Virus genome (UHGV): UHGV-0018978
Length of the DNA stretch: 33,682 nucleotides
Reading direction: 5' to 3' (one strand)
From: a virus
The number at the start of each line of letters is the position of its first letter. Position 1 is the stretch's first letter. A model generated the notes under the pieces. The model did not search any database. It had not been told where the DNA came from and saw only the letters and a program-made list of their open reading frames with translations. The position numbers were made by a program, and so were the translations under genes. Below are positions 5,913 through 33,682 of the stretch, in pieces.

Positions 5913-6354
5913 TAATGGTGGCCTCCCATCGGCGGGTGATTTCGATTGTGAGCGTGGTTTTGTCCGGGCGGGTTAACACCACCTGAAAGGCAATACAGTC
6001 AGGGATGATGATGCTGGCCGTGACGGTGGCGTTACGGGCGTAACCGGCCCGCAGCAGCGGTTGCATGGACAGCCTCGCGTAATCCTCCACACGCAGGCGG
6101 ACGTCTTCCGTCAGCTTTTCGCGCTCAAGCAGCCACAGGCGGGAACCCCACGAAAAATCGCTGTACGTGTCGCCCGGCCAGCCGCGCGGGTCGCCGGAGC
6201 TGTCAGGAATGACGTCATCGTCATCAGCACGGGCATCGGTGAAAAGGCAGATAAGAACCTGAGTGACCAGCCCCTCATCCAGTGAGAGGCCGTTATGGGT
6301 GACGGTGATGTCACCCCGTGAGAGCATGTTATTCCAGCGGATTCCTGTCGTCAT
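5902..6354 (-). CDS. Baseplate protein, Mu gp46-like
   Basis: 150-aa ORF in the conserved position between the V-like and J-like genes. Confidence 0.6.
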   Translation of the reverse strand: MTTGIRWNNMLSRGDITVTHNGLSLDEGLVTQVLICLFTDARADDDDVIPDSSGDPRGWPGDTYSDFSWGSRLWLLEREKLTEDVRLRVEDYARLSMQPLLRAGYARNATVTASIIIPDCIAFQVVLTRPDKTTLTIEITRRWEATINAV

Positions 6355-24553: not shown

Positions 24554-25150
24554 TCACCCCCGCGTGGCGGACATGATGCCCAGAGGGGTATCGATGATTT
24601 CCAGACAGGCGTCGGTCAGTTCTTCCATGCGGTTAAACCAGCCGTTCAGGTATTTGCCACGAGCGGGTTTTGATTTGATGAGGCCCGCATAAAAGCGGCA
24701 ACGGCGAACAATGCAGCGGGACAGCAGCCAGTCCGGGGTGGACAGGCTCACAGCCTTGCGGGTACGCGGGCCGATGATGCCATCGGCAGACACATCAGCG
24801 GCTTCCTGTAAAAACTTGACGGCTTGCTCCACGCCATGCTGAACAGCCGCATCAAACACAAAGAGCGCCACACCATCAGGCCACTGATCACACCCGGCAA
24901 GCAGCCAGTAATCGCGCCAGTAAATCTGCGCAACCTGTTCGCGGGTCAAATCCTTAATGCGGGTATCTGGTTTGCCGTCGCCGTTGACATCGGTTTTGCC
25001 GTCAATCACACCGTCGCGGCGGTCAGAAATGCCGTATTTTGTTTCGCCGCCGCTGTCAGTGGGGTCATTGACATAGCCGCCTTCGATATCAGGACGCAGA
25101 ATAAAATTCAGCGCATGTTCAAAGGCCGGGGAGAATTTTTGATTTTCCAT
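24554..25150 (-). CDS. Endolysin, GH108-type lysozyme with a peptidoglycan-binding domain
   Basis: 198 aa. The N-terminal EGGYVNDPTDSGGETKYGIS motif is characteristic of GH108 enzymes. No N-terminal transmembrane/SAR segment. Confidence 0.75.
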   Translation of the reverse strand: MENQKFSPAFEHALNFILRPDIEGGYVNDPTDSGGETKYGISDRRDGVIDGKTDVNGDGKPDTRIKDLTREQVAQIYWRDYWLLAGCDQWPDGVALFVFDAAVQHGVEQAVKFLQEAADVSADGIIGPRTRKAVSLSTPDWLLSRCIVRRCRFYAGLIKSKPARGKYLNGWFNRMEELTDACLEIIDTPLGIMSATRG

Positions 25151-25205
25151 AAAAGCACCTGTGAAGCAGATTTAAACGTGGTCTGCTTCATGGTGCCGGA
25201 GGCAT

Positions 25206-25227
25206 AAAAAAAGCCGGATTTACCGGC
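25206..25227 (-). terminator. Rho-independent terminator (GCCGG-TAAAT-CCGGC plus T7) downstream of the secreted-protein gene
   Basis: Same stem-loop as at 17470-17492, with a T-run on the minus strand, about 25 bp after the stop of the 25252-25749 gene. Confidence 0.65.
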
Positions 25228-25251
25228 TTCATTGAATATAAGGTTATTGGT

Positions 25252-25749
25252 TCAGTTAACTTTACGGGCAGAACACGTAGTCTTCATTACTGAACGTTCA
25301 ATTTTTATCTTCCAGCCATTTACTGTTTTTTCGACAGGATCATCTTCAGCTTGCTTTAAATTTTTAACTTGCATGAAATTCAGCGGGGCTGGGGTATCAT
25401 CGTCCCATGATGTCGGGCGAACATAATCAGGGACAACAAAAGGCTCAAAAACAGTTTCACATAAAGCAGACGTCATTTGAGCGAACTCGTCGCTATCGGG
25501 GCGAACCGGTCCTGTAACATACTGCATTTTTATGTTGATTTCGTTATCTCGCACAGACGTCTTTAAATCCTGATATACACCTAAGTTAAATCCTTTAAAC
25601 TCAGCAATGGCAGCGTCACCTTTACCGTACCAGTCGGTATAGTCAACGGATGTTTTTTTCTGAAAAACATCTTTGACTTTTTGCTGGAATGTATCCGCCG
25701 CTTGTACAGTAGTAACAGTTAGTAAAAGAATAAGGGGAAGATATTTCAT
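25252..25749 (-). CDS. Secreted/periplasmic protein of unknown function with an N-terminal signal peptide (candidate moron)
   Basis: 165 aa starting MKYLPLILLLTVTTVQA-ADT, a typical Sec signal. The gene is AT-rich relative to the flanking phage genes and has its own terminator. Confidence 0.6.
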   Translation of the reverse strand: MKYLPLILLLTVTTVQAADTFQQKVKDVFQKKTSVDYTDWYGKGDAAIAEFKGFNLGVYQDLKTSVRDNEINIKMQYVTGPVRPDSDEFAQMTSALCETVFEPFVVPDYVRPTSWDDDTPAPLNFMQVKNLKQAEDDPVEKTVNGWKIKIERSVMKTTCSARKVN

Positions 25750-26147
25750 TGTTCGTCCTTAAATAGTTGCATTTGATACTTTCCACGCTCCAGTCGGCGC
25801 ATTCTTTTGATGGCCTGATATACCGTTTTGTATGTCACTTTGTAACGCTGCACCAGCTCCGCTACGTTTTTCCCATCAAAATCACGCCAGATGCGCATGT
25901 CTCTGATAAGATTTTCCAGTATTTTCCCTTTCGGAACATATACCTGAATCCCACCGATATGATTGCAAATCGCCACTACCAGCTCAAGGGAGTGGGCAGG
26001 GTTAACTCCAAGCCTTATCAGCTCTTGTCGCAACAGAGCATTCAGCTCAGCCAGTAAAGATGGAAATCCCGATTTTTCCTGAACATCATCAAAATATTCA
26101 AGGATACTGTCGTCCTGATAATCACCAAATAAATCCTGCTCTTTCAT
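25746..26147 (-). CDS. mor: Mor/C-family transcriptional activator
   Basis: 133 aa with an acidic N-terminus and a C-terminal helix-turn-helix (TYKTVYQAIKRMRRL); sits directly after gemA, as mor does in Mu. Whether it is the Mor or the C orthologue cannot be settled from sequence alone. Confidence 0.7.
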   Translation of the reverse strand: MKEQDLFGDYQDDSILEYFDDVQEKSGFPSLLAELNALLRQELIRLGVNPAHSLELVVAICNHIGGIQVYVPKGKILENLIRDMRIWRDFDGKNVAELVQRYKVTYKTVYQAIKRMRRLERGKYQMQLFKDEQ

Positions 26148-26695
26148 AGAACTATTCTCCCGCTGTTTCTGGCGCGGGCATACGCACTGGTCAGTGCATC
26201 ATATCCGCGCAGTTCCCGCCCGGTTTCGCTCACAGGTAAAGGCACGCCATGTCGGGTAAAGGCTTCCCGAATGCAGCGCATATGCCACTGCTTGAGCGTT
26301 TCGAGCACAACCTGCAACGATTCCCCATGACACCAGGCCAGCGTGGAAACACCCTGACCACCATTACGTCTGGCCGTCAGGCGTGCAACGTATTTGTCCA
26401 GCGCGGCGTCGCTGCCATCAGAGACAAAACCATCAAAGGACATCTGCTGCCAGATTTTATAAATCTTCTCGCGTGGTGTGACATACCCCTTAAAGCGACG
26501 TCGGGGATGTTTTTTCTGCTTCTTAAACCCGCGCTCTTTCATGGCATCGAGCACCTGTTCCAGTTGTGCAACGGACAGCTCGCGGCAACTGGTTTTGCCC
26601 GTGCACTGCACCAGAAAGGCTCGGTAAGTGTCATCGTCGAGGTGCAACTCCCGGCGGGCAACATGAATTAATTTAATCAGGGATGTGCGACTCAT
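26144..26695 (-). CDS. gemA: GemA-like regulatory protein (Mu gp16 family)
   Basis: 183-aa ORF immediately upstream of the Mor-like gene, matching the Mu gemA-mor arrangement. Confidence 0.65.
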   Translation of the reverse strand: MSRTSLIKLIHVARRELHLDDDTYRAFLVQCTGKTSCRELSVAQLEQVLDAMKERGFKKQKKHPRRRFKGYVTPREKIYKIWQQMSFDGFVSDGSDAALDKYVARLTARRNGGQGVSTLAWCHGESLQVVLETLKQWHMRCIREAFTRHGVPLPVSETGRELRGYDALTSAYARARNSGRIVL

Positions 26696-27062
26696 TTTGC
26701 CCCATCTCCTTAATGCAGTGTTTTTCGACCCATGTCACACGAGCAGAATTCAGGTGGCATCTGTCATGTAGGCATTCATCATGGTAGTGCACGTTATCTA
26801 CATTAAATGGCAGGGATTCATCCAGCCCACTCGCGACAAAATCCGCATGTAATTGTTCTAGCGCAGCTTCGCTGTCTGCCCCGATTGATTCAAAATAGTC
26901 ATAAACATTGGCGCATAATCCGACTCCACGAATAAACCCTTCCCCTTCCGTTTCTTGCGCTCCGTTTTTTAACCACTGGTTATAGGCGACATAAAAATCA
27001 TAAAGATGTTTTCTGATGCTGGCGGATGTGGATTTAATTTCATTTTTCTCTGCGTTATTCAT
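26673..27062 (-). CDS. Hypothetical early-region protein
   Basis: 129-aa acidic ORF in the semi-essential early region; no motif recognised. Confidence 0.45.
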   Translation of the reverse strand: MNNAEKNEIKSTSASIRKHLYDFYVAYNQWLKNGAQETEGEGFIRGVGLCANVYDYFESIGADSEAALEQLHADFVASGLDESLPFNVDNVHYHDECLHDRCHLNSARVTWVEKHCIKEMGQNESHIPD

Positions 27063-27237
27063 TTCTTAATACCTCTTCGCAATAAAAGATTTCGCTTGGA
27101 TAACGTTTTTGTATGCGCTCCATCACCTGCATACATGCCTGCTCTGTGGGCCAGATTTTTTCTGTTACCGGAATGGCATCACAGGCATCATTTCCACAGG
27201 TGCCAACCAGCAGGACAAAGCCAATTAACTTAATCAT
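27055..27237 (-). CDS. Small signal-peptide/lipoprotein-like protein
   Basis: Internal start MIKLIGFVLLVGTCGND... gives a 61-aa protein with a hydrophobic leader ending near Cys; ATG at 27237 lies 2 nt after the upstream stop. The listed 92-aa ORF is probably over-extended. Confidence 0.4.
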   Translation of the reverse strand: MIKLIGFVLLVGTCGNDACDAIPVTEKIWPTEQACMQVMERIQKRYPSEIFYCEEVLRNE

Positions 27238-27772
27238 GCTCGCTGATTTCCTGTGTTGCCGCCGGAACCGGTGAATAATCAAGAATGAGATAGCGCAGGA
27301 CGTGGTCGGTGATATTCCAGCCACTGGAGCCACAAATAAAACGACCCAGCCGGATATCGATATAAGCCATCACAAAACGGGGCATTCCCTGTTTGCACAT
27401 CTCGTCATCCACTTCAGCAACGATGTGAACCGACTCGCAAGTCAGTACACCTGTCGCAAATTCTTTTGCCAGTGCCGGAATGGCATTGCCTTCCAGCCAG
27501 GGCAAAGAGCGGCGGAACGCGCACCATTGAGCATCATCAATATCGGGGTGCTCCGTTGTTGCGTTTCGTCTTACTGGCGGCGTTGGACGAGGGCGCTGAA
27601 CGTCATAAAAGCCATTACATTCAGTCAGCAATCCGGCATCAACCGCATCGCGCAGGAAATACACCATTGAGGAAGGTGGCATCTTCATTTTTTCAGCCAG
27701 AACGCCACAAGTCAGACGGCCGTAAGCGCGTAATAATGTACTGACACCGTTCAGAATTTTTGCATCAATCAC
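27230..27772 (-). CDS. Hypothetical early-region protein with a possible N-terminal HTH
   Basis: 180-aa ORF tightly packed with its neighbours. Confidence 0.45.
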   Translation of the reverse strand: MIDAKILNGVSTLLRAYGRLTCGVLAEKMKMPPSSMVYFLRDAVDAGLLTECNGFYDVQRPRPTPPVRRNATTEHPDIDDAQWCAFRRSLPWLEGNAIPALAKEFATGVLTCESVHIVAEVDDEMCKQGMPRFVMAYIDIRLGRFICGSSGWNITDHVLRYLILDYSPVPAATQEISEHD

Positions 27773-27775
27773 CGG

Positions 27776-28381
27776 TTATTCCTCCGTCAGCGCCACAAAT
27801 TCAGAATGTTTAATGCGCTGGCATTCGGCGGGAACCGGTCCCTTAACCTCACCGCCAAGAAGGCGTACTTTAAACAAAATGCCGAATCCATCACGGTCGT
27901 GGTGCATTTCCCACACTGATTTGATGTCAAACAGGTCAACTTCGGCATCTACATTAAGTTCATTACACAGCCAGCCCGGAAAATCCGGGTGTTTTTTGAG
28001 CTGATTTTCACAGTCCCGGATGAGCTTCCCGTACTCACGGCCTGCCGGTATTGTCATATCCGGCATTGCGCCCCATAACTGAATATCACCAATGAAAAGT
28101 GTCTTTGATTTAGCCTCCCATCCTTCCGGTGGTAAACGGTTAAACCAGACACGCGTAACCCTCTCAGACCCTTTGTCACCAGACAAAGACACACCGGTTG
28201 CATTCACTGATTGCTGTAATAACGCAATAACCTCACCACGCTTAACAGAAACGTCTTTCAGCCAGCGAATCGTATAAGCGTTAGCGGCTGTGTCACTCAG
28301 TTTAAAATAAGCACATGCTGTCATTTTCATTCTCTCCGGTTCTGATTCAGGCGCGAGTAGTCCCCTGACGCATCGCGCCAT
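27776..28381 (-). CDS. Hypothetical early-region protein
   Basis: 201-aa ORF (start may be the internal MKMTACAYF) directly downstream of gam. Confidence 0.45.
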   Translation of the reverse strand: MARCVRGLLAPESEPERMKMTACAYFKLSDTAANAYTIRWLKDVSVKRGEVIALLQQSVNATGVSLSGDKGSERVTRVWFNRLPPEGWEAKSKTLFIGDIQLWGAMPDMTIPAGREYGKLIRDCENQLKKHPDFPGWLCNELNVDAEVDLFDIKSVWEMHHDRDGFGILFKVRLLGGEVKGPVPAECQRIKHSEFVALTEE

Positions 28382-28421
28382 AATTAAACGAATGTGAATT
28401 AATTAAATATTAATGGTGGTA

Positions 28422-28946
28422 TTAAATACCGGCTTCCTGTTCAAACGGAATAATGGAAAAATCTTCAATGCCCGATTTAACTGTAATTCCGGCGACACCT
28501 GCGACCGCTTTCGGTTCCAGTAAAATCGCTTCCTTGTTGATTTCCTGTTTCGTGCGAATAAAACGTTGCAGGCCAAGACGCTCCAGCGTTTCCATCACCG
28601 CATCCACACCGCGAATACTTACCGATGGTGGGCGCTGACGCCATGATACATCGCCGGTTACCAGGTTTGCTGTCTTCACCTTGCCGCCGTTCGTCAGTTC
28701 GTCACGGTTCGCTTCACACCATCCCTGAACACCTTTTGAAAGGGTTTCGATACTGGTTTTAAGCGGCGCAATCTGTGAGGCGTATTTCTCCGTAATCTCA
28801 GCAATAGCGTCATTCATTTCTGTTTCAAGTCGTGCCGCTTCGCGTTGCAGGTCCCCAATCCGGCGGATATCACATACCACGGCATCGCGGGATTGCGGAA
28901 CATAAGCCGCTGCGGCGCTCTTGATTCGTTTTGCTGGTTTAGCCAT
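28422..28946 (-). CDS. gam: Host-nuclease inhibitor Gam (binds DNA ends)
   Basis: 174 aa, MAKPAKRIKSAAAAYVPQSRDAV...GIEDFSIIPFEQEAGI; length and sequence agree closely with my recollection of Mu Gam. Confidence 0.85.
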   Translation of the reverse strand: MAKPAKRIKSAAAAYVPQSRDAVVCDIRRIGDLQREAARLETEMNDAIAEITEKYASQIAPLKTSIETLSKGVQGWCEANRDELTNGGKVKTANLVTGDVSWRQRPPSVSIRGVDAVMETLERLGLQRFIRTKQEINKEAILLEPKAVAGVAGITVKSGIEDFSIIPFEQEAGI

Positions 28947-28966
28947 ATAAATAAAGCTCCTGTTAA

Positions 28967-29266
28967 TTAATATTCGCTGTATACAATGCTGGATACAGCA
29001 CGATTGCTTAATTCCATCTTTTGGGCTATCACATGAATAGCCAGCCCTTCTTTATAAAGTTCACGACACAAATATTTGTCGTGCTCACTGACCCGGTATG
29101 CACACAACGATATTCCGTGCCTTCTGGCATGTGCCTGTAGGGCGGTTGGGGCAACGTTCAGTTTTTTCGCCATTTCTTCGACGGTCATTTTCCCGACACT
29201 GGCTTCGATAAATTCCCGGTCTTCGCGTGACCAGCGCTTACGATTACACTTCATGTCAGCCACCAT
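28967..29266 (-). CDS. Small putative DNA-binding protein (HTH)
   Basis: 99 aa with HTH-like segments (TVEEMAKKLNVAPTALQAHARRHGIS). Confidence 0.45.
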   Translation of the reverse strand: MVADMKCNRKRWSREDREFIEASVGKMTVEEMAKKLNVAPTALQAHARRHGISLCAYRVSEHDKYLCRELYKEGLAIHVIAQKMELSNRAVSSIVYSEY

Positions 29267-29686
29267 TCAGTACAGCAGAGGCTCGCGCAGTGATGCCGGA
29301 ATATGCCGCAGCGATAACTGAACCGCTTTCAGGGCAAGGGAAGAATACGTCCCCTGCGTCCAGCCTTTCGCCATTTGCCGGTAATCGCGCCAGATGTTCT
29401 GCCACTGCTCCCGTGCGTCCGGGTCTGACGCGCTGATGTATTCGCGGTCCATGACGTATTCCCATAAATCCACATTGAAGGCGTTGCCAAACGTAATGGC
29501 GCGGAATACCGCCTCTCCGCAATAACGCGCACAAATGCTGTAATGGTCAAATGCAATCAGGTAAGTCTTTTCGCCATACCCCTCAACTTCGCGCGCGCAA
29601 ATAAATTCGCGCAAGTCTCCACCATTGTTATTACGCATTTTAATTCGAATTAATGCCTGGATTTCGTTTCTGATTCTGGCGTTCAT
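29267..29686 (-). CDS. Hypothetical early-region protein
   Basis: 139-aa ORF, contiguous with neighbours. Confidence 0.45.
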   Translation of the reverse strand: MNARIRNEIQALIRIKMRNNNGGDLREFICAREVEGYGEKTYLIAFDHYSICARYCGEAVFRAITFGNAFNVDLWEYVMDREYISASDPDAREQWQNIWRDYRQMAKGWTQGTYSSLALKAVQLSLRHIPASLREPLLY

Positions 29687-29700
29687 TGTCAGCGTTCCTT

Positions 29701-29964
29701 TCAGTGACGTGTTCCTTCAACTGTCGCTTCTGTGACACTGCCACCCGAAATGACGCCATCATTTTTCAGTATTTCAATGGCCTCATGGGCTGACTCGCGA
29801 ACGATATCTCGGCTTTTTTCCAGAACCAGTAACGCTATCGCACCAGCAAGCGTGTATTCATCACCATCCAGTTCTGCACTGTGGTCCACGTTAACATTGG
29901 TGCGTAAATGCTGCCCTTTAACTTCAGATGTCACATTTTTGATTTCGATAATGACTTTTGCCAT
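29701..29964 (-). CDS. Hypothetical early-region protein
   Basis: 87-aa ORF. Confidence 0.4.
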   Translation of the reverse strand: MAKVIIEIKNVTSEVKGQHLRTNVNVDHSAELDGDEYTLAGAIALLVLEKSRDIVRESAHEAIEILKNDGVISGGSVTEATVEGTRH

Positions 29965-29975
29965 TTTGTTTCTCC

Positions 29976-30230
29976 TTATTGATTCTGAATAATTGCGCTG
30001 ACCTTTACCTTCGCGCCTTCTACCTGTTTAAAGAAAACACCACTGCACCACGGACAACATGTGAAGGAGTCCCATACTTCATTTTCGGGGGAACTTTGCG
30101 TCATAAGCTGTTCACCACATCCCGGGCATTTATATGTCGTCAAAGGCACTCCGTGGCGCTGACAATGTTTAACCCACTCAATATATTTTCCAGACCTGAT
30201 ACTCATCGTTATCTCCAGATAATCTGACAA
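29976..30230 (-). CDS. Small zinc-ribbon protein
   Basis: 84 aa with CPGCG...CCPWC, a CxxC...CxxC zinc-ribbon pattern. Confidence 0.5.
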
Positions 30231-30436
30231 CCATTAAGACGGGCCGTCCATACTGAACGGGCAACCCCGGATTTATGCTCCATAATTCTGACCGCGCTTT
30301 TTACCAGTTCCACTGGTGGGTAAGTGATTTCAAGAATCGGACGCGCCACACCGAGATATGATTCATTTACATAACTCCCGCGCGCCTGTAACCAATGCTG
30401 CGCATCTTTTGCCATTTTGATATTACGAGACATCAT
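30209..30436 (-). CDS. kil: Kil-like host cell division inhibitor
   Basis: 75-aa ORF immediately downstream of B, the position and size of Mu kil. Confidence 0.55.
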
Positions 30437-31392
30437 GATTTAGTATCCTCTTTCACACCCAGCAGCATCGAAACATCAACGTCCTGGTCTAACTCTTTGT
30501 AAGCCTCTCGCAGATAATCCTCGTTAACACGTTCGCCTTTACCGAAGGCATTCATAACAGCAAGGCGCAGAGTTTGATTCATAATGCGGAGTGCACCGGG
30601 CGTTTGTGCAATCTGCTGTAATAGTTCCCGTTCATTTTTCCCGGTAATCTGCCAGGCATCCGCAATAGCGTTTACATCGTCTTCTTTGGTTTTATTAATT
30701 GCAGTGCGCTTTGCAATACGGGAAAACAGACGGGCAAACTCAATTGTTCTGTCGCCATTACTGGTCATATTTGAATAAACACGGTGATTCCCCATCAGAA
30801 CAAGACCAATACAGGCTGATTCCTGTAACAGACGGAGTTCTTCCAGCGCCTCGGTGTCGAGGTGATCAGCTTCGTCAACAATGACCAGCCCCTGTGTTCC
30901 CTTTAGGCGACGACGCAGATTGCGGGAAAGCGGCCCTTTGCGACATGGTGCATTATTCATTCCCAATTCTTCGGCAAGTTCGGTCAGACATTCCAGTGTA
31001 CTGGCACGGGATGGCGCAATGGTGATCATCCAGACATTATTATTAGTGCGACAAAATTCACGGGCCGCTTCGCTTTTACCCACGCCAGGATTACCGCAGA
31101 TAACAGCAATAGTTCCGGTCAGATTAGCAAAACGCATACTTGTCCAGATTTGACGGGCTGTTGTAGTTTCCACAAAACGCGGGGGTTCCGGCAGTTCTTC
31201 AGCGCGGTGATAGTTTTCCAGCCAGCGTTGCAGTGTGCTCCCGATTGCTTCCATGTTGCCGTTATATTTATCATTCACAAAACCACTGACTGTGCTCAGG
31301 GCTACACCTGATTCACTGGCGATGCGTGTCAGCGTGGTTTCTCCATTGTCTACAAGCGTGCGCAGTCCTGCGCGAATATCGGAAATATTCAT
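30433..31392 (-). CDS. B: Transposition ATPase / target DNA activator B (MuB)
   Basis: 319 aa, [14 protein letters not shown]... with Walker [11 protein letters not shown] and Walker [11 protein letters not shown]; closely matches my recollection of Mu B. Confidence 0.9.
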
Positions 31393-31430
31393 CTTAATAA
31401 CCTCGTAATCAAATTTTATTTAAACGTTAA

Positions 31431-33403
31431 TTAAATGGCTTTTTTGCGTCTTTTCTGTTCCAGAATATCCAGTGACTGATTCAGATATTCATCACGAGAG
31501 GGTTCGTATTTATCATCGGGGGTGCGATATTTAACCTGCACTGTGTTACCTACAGGCCGGAAAATACCAACAACCCTTGATTCTGGTGCTGCTGGTTCGG
31601 CTATCTGCGGCAGTAATTCAGCAACTTCCAGTGCGTCCATTTGTTTCTGTGCCTTAATCGCTGCTTTCGTCGCAGATTTCAGTTGTTTCTGGCGTCGGCG
31701 ATACTCACGACCTGCCGCAGCATCATTAAATGCAACTGGTGCCAGACATTCCGCTTCACAGATAAACCGACCGTCCAGGGTGTAGCAATAAACAGTGCTG
31801 TGTAGCTGCTGCGGATCAAACCTGACCACGACTTTTTTCACTCCGGCATTCATTAATGCCATGTTGTAATAAACGTTTTTCGCGCCTTTAAGAGAGCCGC
31901 CAACTTTAAGCGTAAACTCGCCTTTGCGTGAAACGTTCACCGCCTCAGCAGGCAGTAACAACATCCGTTTTTGTTCTTCGGTTGGCTTACGTACAATCGT
32001 TCTGGCGTATTCACGCTCAAAAACATCATCAAACGAAAGTTTGCCCCCGCACATTTCTGTTTCACGGCCTGTTCTGGCATTGAACATCGCCACACCTTCG
32101 GCAAGTGTTTTCAGAAACAGTTCTGCATCAATAGCCCGGTCGCCATAGTTATCAGGTTTTGCCTGCGGATTTGGCCCCGTATATGCGCCAGCCAGCGCCG
32201 GATGCTTATCAACATATTCCTCAAGTCCCCCTACACCAAAAGCGCGTTCAACTGGTTTTGCCTGCCCCCAGCCCTTACCAGCAACAACACTTGTCCAGTG
32301 CATGGTGGCCCCCATCAGTAAAAACAGTCCCTTTGGATCATCCTCTTTCACTTTAAAGCGGTAGCGATTGGGCGCGCCCCCCGTCAGCCATTTATTCGCT
32401 GCGCCACGGGTGTTATCAATAGTGATATGAAAATCCTCCGGGATGCCGTAGCGTGTCACCACATCCATGAACGAGAGGCGAATTGAATCGATGTTCTCGC
32501 TTACATCGCAACGCCAGCCCAGAATTTTTCGGGTTTTCACATCCTGCCAGAACCATGTTTTCGGGCGGATCACATCACCGTTAAACCAGCGTACAAAGAC
32601 GTTATGGAGATAACCGTCGCCGTTGATCCACTGCATAGCGTCCAGGTGTTCCACAGTTCGCTGCTGTGCCGGTATCAGATGCATCAGTGCATGTTCACCT
32701 TCACGGCAGGCAACAACCATTGCCTCGTCCAGTTGCTGAATCCGGCGAAAGGCCGTGGCACGGGAGGGAATATTCCAGCCATGCTCACGTGCAGCCAGTT
32801 CCAGACGCTCATAACATTTGCGGAAGGCGGGCTTTTCCGGTCGCAGATAATCTGCAATCAGAAACTGCCAGGCATCCTCGTCAAATTCACTTTTGTGAAC
32901 ATTGCGACGAGATGCACCACGTCCATCAACAAGTGCAGCCGCCCAGTCAGGCTTCGCAAACTTCTGTACCGCACAGTGGATGCGCTGACCTGGTAATGCC
33001 CTGCAACGGTCGCAAAAGCCGTTTTTGTTGAAATCCCCTGGTTCAGCATTTCGTCTGCGGCCTGAACTGCAGGCAACCATTTTTCAGCAAGTCTGCGCTG
33101 GGAATCGCTGGCGTTATCCCATTTGCTCCACAGTGCCTCACGATCGTAATCGTGCGCTTCCAGCGTGGGGCGGGCGATTTCAAAATACCCCTGGCTTGTT
33201 TCAATACCTCCTTGTTGCAATAAAATTTCAGCACGTAATGCAACAGGAAATGATTTGATATTGAATTCAAATGATACGCCTTTAGTACCTGTAACTTGCC
33301 TAAACACCCAGCCTTCTCTTTGTGCCTTACGTGTAATGTTAGTTGCTTGCTTTGGCAAACCAGCAAAACCAAGCAATTCTTTCGCTGTATACCACTCTTT
33401 CAT
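31431..33403 (-). pseudogene. A: DDE transposase A (MuA-like, D108-type N-terminus), split by a frameshift near 32968
   Basis: The N-terminal 181-aa ORF (32858-33403) and the 549-aa ORF (31431-33080) are in different frames. Conserved sequence runs ...[11 protein letters not shown] in frame 1, then continues [19 protein letters not shown]... in frame 2, with about 223 nt of overlap. The 549-aa part includes the catalytic core and C-terminus. Confidence 0.7.
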
Positions 33404-33410
33404 AGCGCAC

Positions 33411-33632
33411 CTAGTATCGAGATGGCCAGATATCCTGCGGTGTCATTCCCAATGCATCTGCAATGATTTTTTCCGCTTTCGGGTATCTCTTATCTAAAGC
33501 ATTTTTTAATGTTGAAGACGAAAGATGATTCGATCTTCCCAATTCGGCCAGTGACATATTGCGTTTTCGTAACTCAGCAACGATGTCAGCCCGATGCCAG
33601 TCTTGGCGGTTAGCTCTTTTATTCATATGCAT
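33411..33632 (-). CDS. ner: Ner-like DNA-binding regulator (D108-type)
   Basis: [73 protein letters not shown] belongs to the Ner/Nlp family. Start chosen at 33632 to give 73 aa; the ORF extends to 33656. Confidence 0.8.
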
Positions 33633-33660
33633 TTCATGTAATCCTTTCAGATTCACCCGT

Positions 33661-33682
33661 GAGCTACTCTACAAAGTAGCTC
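33661..33682. promoter_or_regulatory. Candidate operator: inverted repeat GAGCTACT-N6-AGTAGCTC upstream of ner
   Basis: Perfect 8-bp inverted repeat at the window edge, about 30 bp upstream of ner, where the early promoter and operators lie in Mu-type phages. May be cut off by the window end. Confidence 0.4.

Follow-up and report, generated by a model that had tools for sequence, protein, structure and literature searches.

The region described here covers positions 26673 to 30436 of UHGV virus genome UHGV-0018978, a stretch of 33,682 nucleotides (nt) that was analyzed over its whole length and is called the window below. The window is a Mu-like prophage of Escherichia coli/Salmonella. Between gene B and gemA it carries ten small, translationally coupled open reading frames (ORFs), all on the minus strand. 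We are nearly certain that this block represents the semi-essential early (SEE) region of a transposable prophage of the Mu type, composed of a conserved backbone and two slots for exchangeable cargo genes. By genetic definition, an SEE region is dispensable for plaque formation yet affects growth. Along the minus strand the gene order is ner (33411 to 33656), A (31431 to 33403), B, the block, gemA, and mor (25746 to 26147), and ner, A, B, gemA, and mor each have a Mu orthologue. The features of the block and its flanks are as follows, with lengths in amino acids (aa); w184, w60, and w129 denote the three cargo proteins, and HTH stands for helix-turn-helix.

30433 to 31392, minus strand: B, transposition ATPase, left flank and anchor; 77% identical to Mu B, relatives carry AAA_22 and Phage-MuB_C
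30209 to 30436, minus strand: kil (75 aa), Mu gp5 orthologue
29976 to 30206, minus strand: gp6 orthologue (76 aa), Cys-rich and zinc-ribbon-like
29701 to 29964, minus strand: gp7 orthologue (87 aa, acidic)
29267 to 29686, minus strand: gp8 orthologue (139 aa)
28967 to 29266, minus strand: gp9 orthologue (99 aa; possibly 95 aa via an ATG at 29254), two HTH-like segments predicted
28422 to 28946, minus strand: gam (174 aa), predicted Ku-like double-stranded DNA end binder, PF07352
28331 to 28421, minus strand: gam 3' spacer, 91 nt, AT-rich, conserved with Mu; left edge of exchange point 1
27776 to 28330, minus strand: w184, DUF5420-related cargo (184 aa) with a modeled alpha/beta fold; in SfMu, not in Mu
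27230 to 27772, minus strand: gp11 orthologue (180 aa, GTG start), weakly winged-HTH-like N terminus plus Gp11_C
27055 to 27237, minus strand: w60, cargo peptide (60 aa) with a hydrophobic N terminus, a conserved Cys-Gly, and three more conserved Cys residues
26673 to 27062, minus strand: w129, acidic cargo (129 aa); residues ~18 to 117 form an all-helical domain, here called domX
26144 to 26695, minus strand: gemA, right flank and conserved anchor of exchange point 2; 80% identical to Mu GemA, PF06252 in relatives

Three of these starts are corrected calls, consistent with the genes annotated in identical public contigs and in the Mu-type phage SfMu. The gp6 orthologue begins at an ATG after GGAG and has 76 aa, not 84. 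An ORF initially listed as 201 aa (27776 to 28381) most likely starts at 28330, behind a GGAGAGA ribosome-binding site; proteins of 182 to 184 aa are called in those contigs and in SfMu. The w60 start is the ATG that overlaps the gp11 stop codon. The block contains almost no noncoding DNA: its junctions range from a 23-nt overlap to a 20-nt gap, with the 91-nt spacer between gam and w184 as the sole exception. The kil start lies on the B stop codon (a 4-nt overlap, ATGA). Gaps of 2, 11, and 14 nt follow at kil/gp6, gp6/gp7, and gp7/gp8; gp8 and gp9 abut (0 nt), gp9 and gam are 20 nt apart, and w184 and gp11 are 3 nt apart. The remaining genes overlap, by 8 nt at gp11/w60, 8 nt at w60/w129, and 23 nt at w129/gemA.

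Judged by sequence, the ten ORFs are real genes and not chance ORFs, because each has protein homologues and because the pairwise ratio of nonsynonymous to synonymous substitution rates (dN/dS) is below 1 in nine of them (0.06 to 0.29 for eight genes, 0.37 to 0.52 for w184). The ratio was calculated where a divergent homologue was intact, which applied to nine genes. There is no usable value for w60, which is supported as a gene by homologues that are 40 to 57% identical in other phages. Neither promoter-like sites (8 in the block against 9.5 expected from shuffled sequence) nor terminator-like sites (8 against 7.2) are in excess in a crude consensus scan, which also listed no minus-strand terminator-like hairpin between 30436 and 26144. 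Downstream hairpins are a weak one of 5 pairs inside mor (25899 to 25883) and a strong one of 8 pairs at 25230 to 25210, past mor and one further ORF. An Rfam scan of 25000 to 33682 gave no match inside the block.

A first-pass annotation, made from the letters alone, had placed a Mu-type semi-essential early region of about ten tightly coupled small genes between B and gemA. Gene order, Mu orthologues, and the short gaps and overlaps bear this out. Its kil and gam genes are both present, and its zinc-ribbon protein, HTH proteins, and lipoprotein-like peptide can be recognized, respectively, in the Cys-rich gp6, in gp9 and the N terminus of gp11, and in w60 with its hydrophobic start followed by Cys-Gly.

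Comparison with Mu separates the block into two kinds of genes. Seven of the ten ORFs are one-to-one orthologues of Mu gp5 to gp11, with protein identities of 93% (kil), 80% (gp6), 71% (gp7), 84% (gp8), 89% (gp9), 93% (gam), and 86% (gp11). The w184 protein has no Mu counterpart and is 65% identical to SfMu gp11, a "DUF5420 family protein" in RefSeq; w60 and w129 have no counterpart among the Mu or SfMu proteins. At the DNA level, megablast matched the block to Mu, D108, SfMu, and Yersinia pestis Mu-type phages at 86 to 88% identity over 63 to 84% of its length. The first ~600 bases of the block, which encode w129 and w60, were matched in none of these phages. Identical proteins are encoded in assemblies of E. 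coli and Salmonella enterica, annotated as hypothetical throughout.

Hence, the block has a conserved backbone that is interrupted at two gene-sized exchange points, one between gam and gp11 and the other between gp11 and gemA. DNA similarity to Mu stops exactly at 28340 and 27788, the ends of a gene-sized indel that holds w184. In Mu, the gam spacer runs straight into the final few codons of the w184 gene and the gp11 start, and therefore the exchange keeps the downstream ribosome-binding site. A second exact break, at 27257 and 26696, brackets w60 and w129 in place of 1.3 kb with Mu gp12 to gp15. The occupants recorded for this second slot are Mu gp12 to gp15, SfMu gp13 to gp16, w129 alone, and a 231-aa domX fusion. 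In five related E. coli loci (L003 to L007, at 5970 to 6005 of the locus), the last 12 codons of w60 (EIFYCEEVLRNE) are left upstream of a 129-aa gene as a deletion scar; therefore w60 and w129 once traveled together as an ancestral cassette. In two others (L021 and L022, at 1753 to 2459), the 231-aa product is an in-frame mosaic of an N-terminal extension, domX (81% identical to w129), and the zinc ribbon of Mu gp13 (93%).

The real variable content of the block is thus confined to 27776 to 28330 and 26673 to 27237. The first-pass annotation had listed four ORFs as accessory proteins of unknown function. The two at 26673 to 27062 and 27776 to 28381 are indeed variable, whereas those at 29267 to 29686 and 27230 to 27772 are backbone genes, the orthologues of Mu gp8 and gp11 (84 to 86% identity). 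It had also held that one-to-one homology of every ORF to characterized Mu early proteins would argue against accessory content. This homology extends to only part of the block: seven of the ten ORFs map to Mu, an eighth maps to SfMu, and two map to neither, and most of the Mu proteins concerned are uncharacterized.

Presence and absence over 25 loci followed the same division. All close Mu-type loci have kil, gp9, gam, gp11, and gemA; gp6, gp7, and gp8 are missing in some, w184 is rare, and the content of the second slot varies by relative. The two most divergent Mu-like loci (L024 and L025) gave matches for gam and gp11 and none for kil or gp9. These two are Mu-like phages annotated inside Stx1a- and Stx2c-converting prophage genomes (LC727895 and LC727881), and their small early ORFs between B and gam are a different set. 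Among 5426 complete E. coli genomes, the backbone is found in 92. Cargo with domX is nearly as widespread as the alternative from Mu: w60/w129 DNA occurs in 74 of these genomes and Mu gp12 to gp14 DNA in 84. The full w60-w129 cassette is rarer (10 of the 74) than the full Mu counterpart (26 of the 84), and the w184 gene is present in only 6 genomes. These counts replaced a census of GTDB species representatives anchored on GemA, which returned only 9 distant loci and was uninformative.

Pfam and NCBIfam searches of the block gave above-threshold matches only for Gam and Gp11_C, the others being subthreshold HTH and zinc-ribbon matches, and PHROGs offered only Mu-type family names for the block proteins. 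The Kil protein (its identity to Mu gp5 extends over 74 residues) is 95% identical to SfMu gp5, belongs to phrog_2743 (E value of 8e−41), and has a dN/dS of 0.06 to 0.13; PF26843 (Kil_protein) is recorded on the identical product in four loci (L008 to L011). Cells become spherical when Mu kil is expressed, and the protein has no relationship to lambda Kil (PMC3961180), which is a reason not to read the PHROG label "septation inhibition" at face value. Gam matches PF07352 (Phage_Mu_Gam) with 148.4 bits against a cutoff of 28.3, over profile positions 7 to 148 of 149. It has a relative in the PDB (2p2u, E value of 4e−6) and a dN/dS of 0.06 to 0.08. A Mu-type Gam blocks the loading of RecBCD (PMC12407980).

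The gp6 orthologue has the Cys arrangement CPGC-x19-CCPWC and falls into phrog_3786 (E value of 1e−39); its matches to generic zinc-ribbon hidden Markov models (HMMs) are weak and all below threshold. PF26833 (Phage_Mu_gp6) is recorded on a 76-aa product at the same position in locus L009, which is 100% identical to gp6 of the window by tblastn. The gene is missing from the E. coli relatives L003 to L007, L021, and L022. Neither gp7 nor gp8 has an informative family match: gp7 (phrog_10252, E value of 4e−39; dN/dS of 0.24) is missing from L005, L021, and L022, and gp8 (phrog_3690, E value of 2e−87; 91% identical to SfMu gp8) is confined by tblastn to the 14 Mu-type phage records and has no match in Pfam, NCBIfam, or the PDB. 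The remaining two, gp9 and gp11, are probably DNA-binding accessory regulators, judging from family and domain matches. For gp9, these are phrog_323, "transcriptional regulator, D5-like" (E value of 3e−27), and many HTH Pfam matches just below threshold at residues 9 to 52 and 63 to 95. For gp11, they are PF25754 (Gp11_C; 133.2 bits against a cutoff of 27, profile positions 1 to 78 of 78) and HTH_20 at an E value of 0.078. The gp11 gene is present in every Mu-type locus compared and has a dN/dS of 0.10 to 0.16.

The occupant of the first slot, w184, is a divergent DUF5420 relative by a link that runs through its homologues: w184 itself has no Pfam match at an E value of ≤1, and 6 of 17 aligned relatives match PF17457 (best E value, 7e−14). 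Only ~15 relatives are recognizable, all of them in enterobacterial Mu-type elements. The structure model has a mean predicted local distance difference test score (pLDDT) of 90 and an alpha/beta fold with no solved relative. The dN/dS of 0.37 to 0.52 is the highest in the block (neighbors, 0.06 to 0.29). Relatives are otherwise only 50 to 65% identical, but the last 16 residues (the PAECQRIKHSEFVALTEE region, 27776 to 27826) are nearly invariant. This invariance may reflect constraint from overlapping translation signals of gp11 or recombination at the junction.

The second slot begins with w60, a member of phrog_16556 (E value of 2.5e−28). The signal peptide of a bacterial lipoprotein has a positively charged n-region and ends in L-[AS]-[GA]-C. 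In w60 the N terminus, LIGFxLLVxxCG, is conserved together with three further Cys residues. The protein starts with MIKLIGFVLLVGTC followed by G; the Cys is invariant, the residue before it is Thr here, Ser in Yersinia, and Pro in Aeromonas, and the n-region is minimal. From these features w60 is possibly a lipoprotein or a membrane-anchored peptide, and the lipoprotein assignment stays a possibility because the residue before the Cys is noncanonical for a lipobox. Temperate phages of Yersinia, Aeromonas, and Hafnia carry homologues. The two loci inspected, one from Yersinia and one from Aeromonas, have the gene among accessory genes upstream of xis/int; RecT adjoins it in one, and Lar and methyltransferase genes are a few genes away in the other. 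We also considered whether w60 is a diverged Mu gp13, as both have 60 aa and are Cys rich. This was ruled out: the alignment is a 6-residue chance match, and the architectures differ, an N-terminal hydrophobic segment versus a zinc ribbon.

The second protein of the cassette, w129, belongs to a very large phage domain family that has no name; its fold is predicted with confidence and has no solved relative. The recognition of this membership is mildly new. An exhaustive HMMER search for domX returned 499 cluster representatives at an E value of ≤1e−3. Many are stand-alone proteins of 100 to 110 aa, and some are tandem repeats or fusions. None of 101 aligned stand-alone members matches NCBIfam, and the Pfam matches in 40 mostly multidomain relatives lie only on fused partner domains, never on domX. 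The AlphaFold2 model of w129 has a pLDDT of 91.9 and five helices; the protein is acidic, with an isoelectric point (pI) of 4.9, and its 129 residues carry a net charge of −12. Across the family, conservation falls on W30, C50 (in GLC), P85-F86 (in PFN), Y93, N105, R108, and W111; these positions are mostly aromatic or hydrophobic, and C50 is invariant. A candidate zinc site in w129 (HYHDECLHDRCH) was ruled out, as its His and Cys residues vary across the family and C50 alone is invariant.

By tblastn, domX is present in 210 phage records, with hosts of the domain among phAPEC8-like and rV5-like myoviruses and N4-like, T1-like, Achromobacter, Rhizobium, Burkholderia, and jumbo phages. In an N4-like phage, the domX gene is annotated "gp3 [N4]" and lies at the left genome end. 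In phAPEC8 (L028, NC_020079.1, 5764 to 24081), the w129 domain has at least seven paralogues (gp245, gp244, gp233, gp222, gp219, gp214, and gp211) within one 18-kb array of small hypothetical genes, and in lambdoid prophages domX is found in the nin region or adjoining xis-int. Fusion partners include a Lar-type zinc ribbon (protein P0025), DUF551 (P0038), and dATP/dGTP pyrophosphohydrolase plus DUF7415 (P0018). The Lar domain (PF14354) has no match in w129; the distant relative P0025 carries it C-terminal to domX.

Outside the block, the A gene (31431 to 33403, minus strand) lacks 16 bp (GGGACAAGTATTACCA) near 32969 and has one substitution next to this deletion; neither change is found in Mu, in L003, or in the otherwise near-identical prophages L008, L009, and L011. 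The deletion splits A into a 181-aa ORF (32858 to 33403) and a second frame with residues 152 to 663; residues 1 to 146 of Mu A align to 33403 to 32969. As read, the prophage of the window is either defective or misassembled, and unless the frameshift is an assembly error, it cannot transpose. On the other side, mor is followed by a 165-aa ORF (25252 to 25749, minus strand) with a classic Sec signal peptide (MKYLPLILLLTVTTVQA, followed by AD) and no family match. It has no homologue detected in Mu, where gp18 and gp19 come after mor; a weak Mu gp18 homologue maps elsewhere in the window. The hairpin at 25210 to 25230, behind this ORF, is the strongest terminator-like structure in the scanned stretch, and a GH108-type endolysin gene comes next. 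Antisense to the junction of mor and the 165-aa ORF, at 25568 to 25796 on the plus strand, Rfam gave a weak match to the Yersinia small RNA (sRNA) Ysr206 (29.8 bits against a gathering threshold of 124; E value of 1e−4), which is probably prophage sequence similarity and not an sRNA gene.

How might these genes work together? The explanation that we consider probable as a whole is that of an SEE region in which a backbone is combined with two cargo slots and the cargo binds host components. By analogy with Mu, the block would be the distal part of a single early operon, ner-A-B-SEE-gemA-mor, in which short gaps and overlapping stop and start codons could keep expression in step. The backbone (kil, gp6 to gp9, gam, and gp11) would be inherited vertically with Mu. 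If the proteins of this phage behave like their Mu counterparts, Kil would harm host cell shape and viability, and Gam, presumably as a Ku-like dimer, would cap the ends of linear phage DNA against RecBCD. Cargo is exchanged as whole genes at two fixed junctions, with the downstream ribosome-binding site left intact. In the window, the gam/gp11 slot carries a DUF5420-related alpha/beta protein. The gp11/gemA slot has two genes in place of Mu gp12 to gp15, one for w60, a small peptide that is rich in Cys and resembles a membrane peptide or lipoprotein, and one for the acidic domX protein w129, modeled as helical. We hypothesize that the cargo proteins are nonenzymatic binders made early in lytic growth, with w184 and w129 acting in host takeover or counterdefense and w60 in an envelope-directed role. 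Taken by itself, the binding of host components as the role of the cargo is a tentative proposal that falls a little short of an even chance.

Several points weigh against this explanation. Only Kil and Gam have known activities among the ten proteins, and evidence of function from experiment or homology is confined to these two; the other eight matched no functional family in Pfam, NCBIfam, or PHROGs. Cotranscription is presumed from the analogy with Mu and the crude consensus scan alone. The prophage of the window might never run a lytic program, in which case its early genes may be silent passengers. A dN/dS of 0.4 to 0.5 in w184 is equally expected under relaxed constraint. Finally, the description of domX as a binder and not an enzyme comes from its conservation pattern and small modeled helical fold, and an active site would explain the invariant Cys and the nearly invariant Asn and Arg equally well.

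A more specific role was suggested by the first-pass annotation, which saw candidates for antidefense or host inhibition in the four ORFs that it called unknown. In its strongest form, w184 and/or w129 would be dedicated antidefense proteins against restriction, RecBCD-linked, or Gabija-type immunity. Both sit in the early operon beside Gam, cargo has a patchy distribution and is exchanged in cassettes, w129 is acidic, the dN/dS of w184 is raised, and domX recurs in multiple copies in small hypothetical-gene arrays of virulent phages. Gabija senses Mu-type Gam and GemA (PMC12407980), so that a countermeasure encoded between them would make sense. One domX relative is fused to a Lar restriction alleviation zinc ribbon; however, this is a single metagenomic protein that barely exceeds the Pfam threshold (29.3 against 28.6 bits), and the charge of w129 is far below the level of DNA mimics. 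A PADLOC search (E value of ≤0.1) found no antiphage defense family for nine of the ten proteins. The two weak matches of gp9 (E values of 0.0044 and 0.024) are not credible; they are of the HTH type, and the proteins matched are GajB and mad1. A PDB sequence search with a concatenate of all 13 early proteins matched Mor and Gam alone, and the PDB returned no match to profiles built from the domX and DUF5420 alignments. Pfam, NCBIfam, PHROGs, and PADLOC gave no function for the three cargo proteins, and literature searches on Mu gp6 to gp12, DUF5420, and the functional dissection of the SEE region turned up nothing usable apart from general statements. What is left of the suggestion is circumstantial (patchy distribution, cassette exchange, the dN/dS of w184, and accessory or early location elsewhere), and every one of its supports applies equally to any accessory host interaction gene. 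Dedicated antidefense is thus a conjecture that we regard as unlikely, and it is similarly doubtful that domX or w184 represents a new effector class.

Could the cargo instead serve the lysogen or the phage's own replication? In the lysogen, w60 would be an envelope peptide for superinfection exclusion or surface change, with w129 and w184 as morons that benefit the host. The hydrophobic N terminus, Cys-Gly, and three further Cys residues of w60 fit this idea, as do its homologues in other temperate phages, the two whose loci were inspected having integrase or recombination modules beside them, and all ten ORFs are intact despite the disrupted transposase. Yet the intact state of near-identical relatives makes the deletion in A specific to the window and probably recent, and Thr (or Pro in Aeromonas) before the Cys does not make a canonical lipobox. 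Moreover, with the cargo inside a repressor-controlled early operon, overlapping start and stop codons, and promoter-like sites not above chance, expression in the lysogen is not expected, and we find a lysogenic role improbable. A role in the replication, transposition, or immunity of Mu would make the variable genes candidates for SEE functions that are defined by genetics but unassigned, such as arm (amplified replication) and cim (control of immunity), or partners of GemA. In classical Mu genetics, arm, cim, and lig/gem map to the SEE region. The second slot lies directly upstream of gemA and overlaps it, and the neighbors gp9 and gp11 resemble DNA-binding proteins. Against this, domX occurs in hundreds of nontransposable phages (N4-like, phAPEC8-like, lambdoid, and jumbo) and cannot be transposition specific, Mu has unrelated proteins in the second slot, and w184 is missing from most Mu-type prophages, all of which makes such a role very unlikely.

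For Mu biology, the picture of an SEE region with exchangeable cargo means that the stretch from gam to gemA is not uniformly variable but is a conserved backbone with two precise slots. The rest of the block is as a specialist would expect in a Mu-like prophage. With domX, a widespread, well-folding, uncharacterized early-gene domain, and w184, a fast-evolving Mu-specific protein, the slots offer cheap targets for toxicity and antidefense screens.

According to the literature, the SEE region is poorly conserved and consists of small uncharacterized proteins (PMC8705779). That of Mu and D108 (Mup05 to Mup15) has the same position between B and gemA, the same strand, and the same order, kil-gp6-gp7-gp8-gp9-gam-gp11, as the block in the window. 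Mu differs in lacking a DUF5420-related gene between gam and gp11 and in having gp12 to gp15 in place of w60 and w129; the two cargo sets have no detectable similarity. SfMu and the Yersinia phages vB_YpM_Tongde/3/23 share with the window both the backbone and the DUF5420-related gene behind gam, with w184 being 65% identical to the SfMu protein and 82 to 86% identical to those of the Yersinia phages. In the second slot, SfMu has the Mu-type cargo gp13 to gp16 and not w60 and w129, and the megablast match to the Yersinia phages ends short of the w60-w129 stretch. The E. coli prophages L003 to L007 and L021/L022 have, like the window, a domX protein in the slot before gemA. The 129-aa form of L003 to L007 is 74% identical to that of the window, and these prophages lack w60 (apart from the 12-codon remnant), gp6, and the DUF5420 gene; the 231-aa form of L021 and L022, 81% identical over the domain, is fused in frame to the zinc ribbon of Mu gp13, and genes of the gp14 type are kept. 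Farther afield, phrog_6418, phrog_2510, phrog_27059, and phrog_2176 contain the same helical domain of ~100 residues as domX, with the conserved W, GLC, PFN, Y..E, and N..R..W. Their members come from virulent and lambdoid phages, and none is characterized, so that no function can be transferred to w129. In summary, the type of region is known, most of its genes are orthologues of cataloged Mu genes, and the cargo families are already in PHROGs under "unknown function"; mildly new are the explicit map of a backbone with two slots and the frequency of the alternative cassettes.

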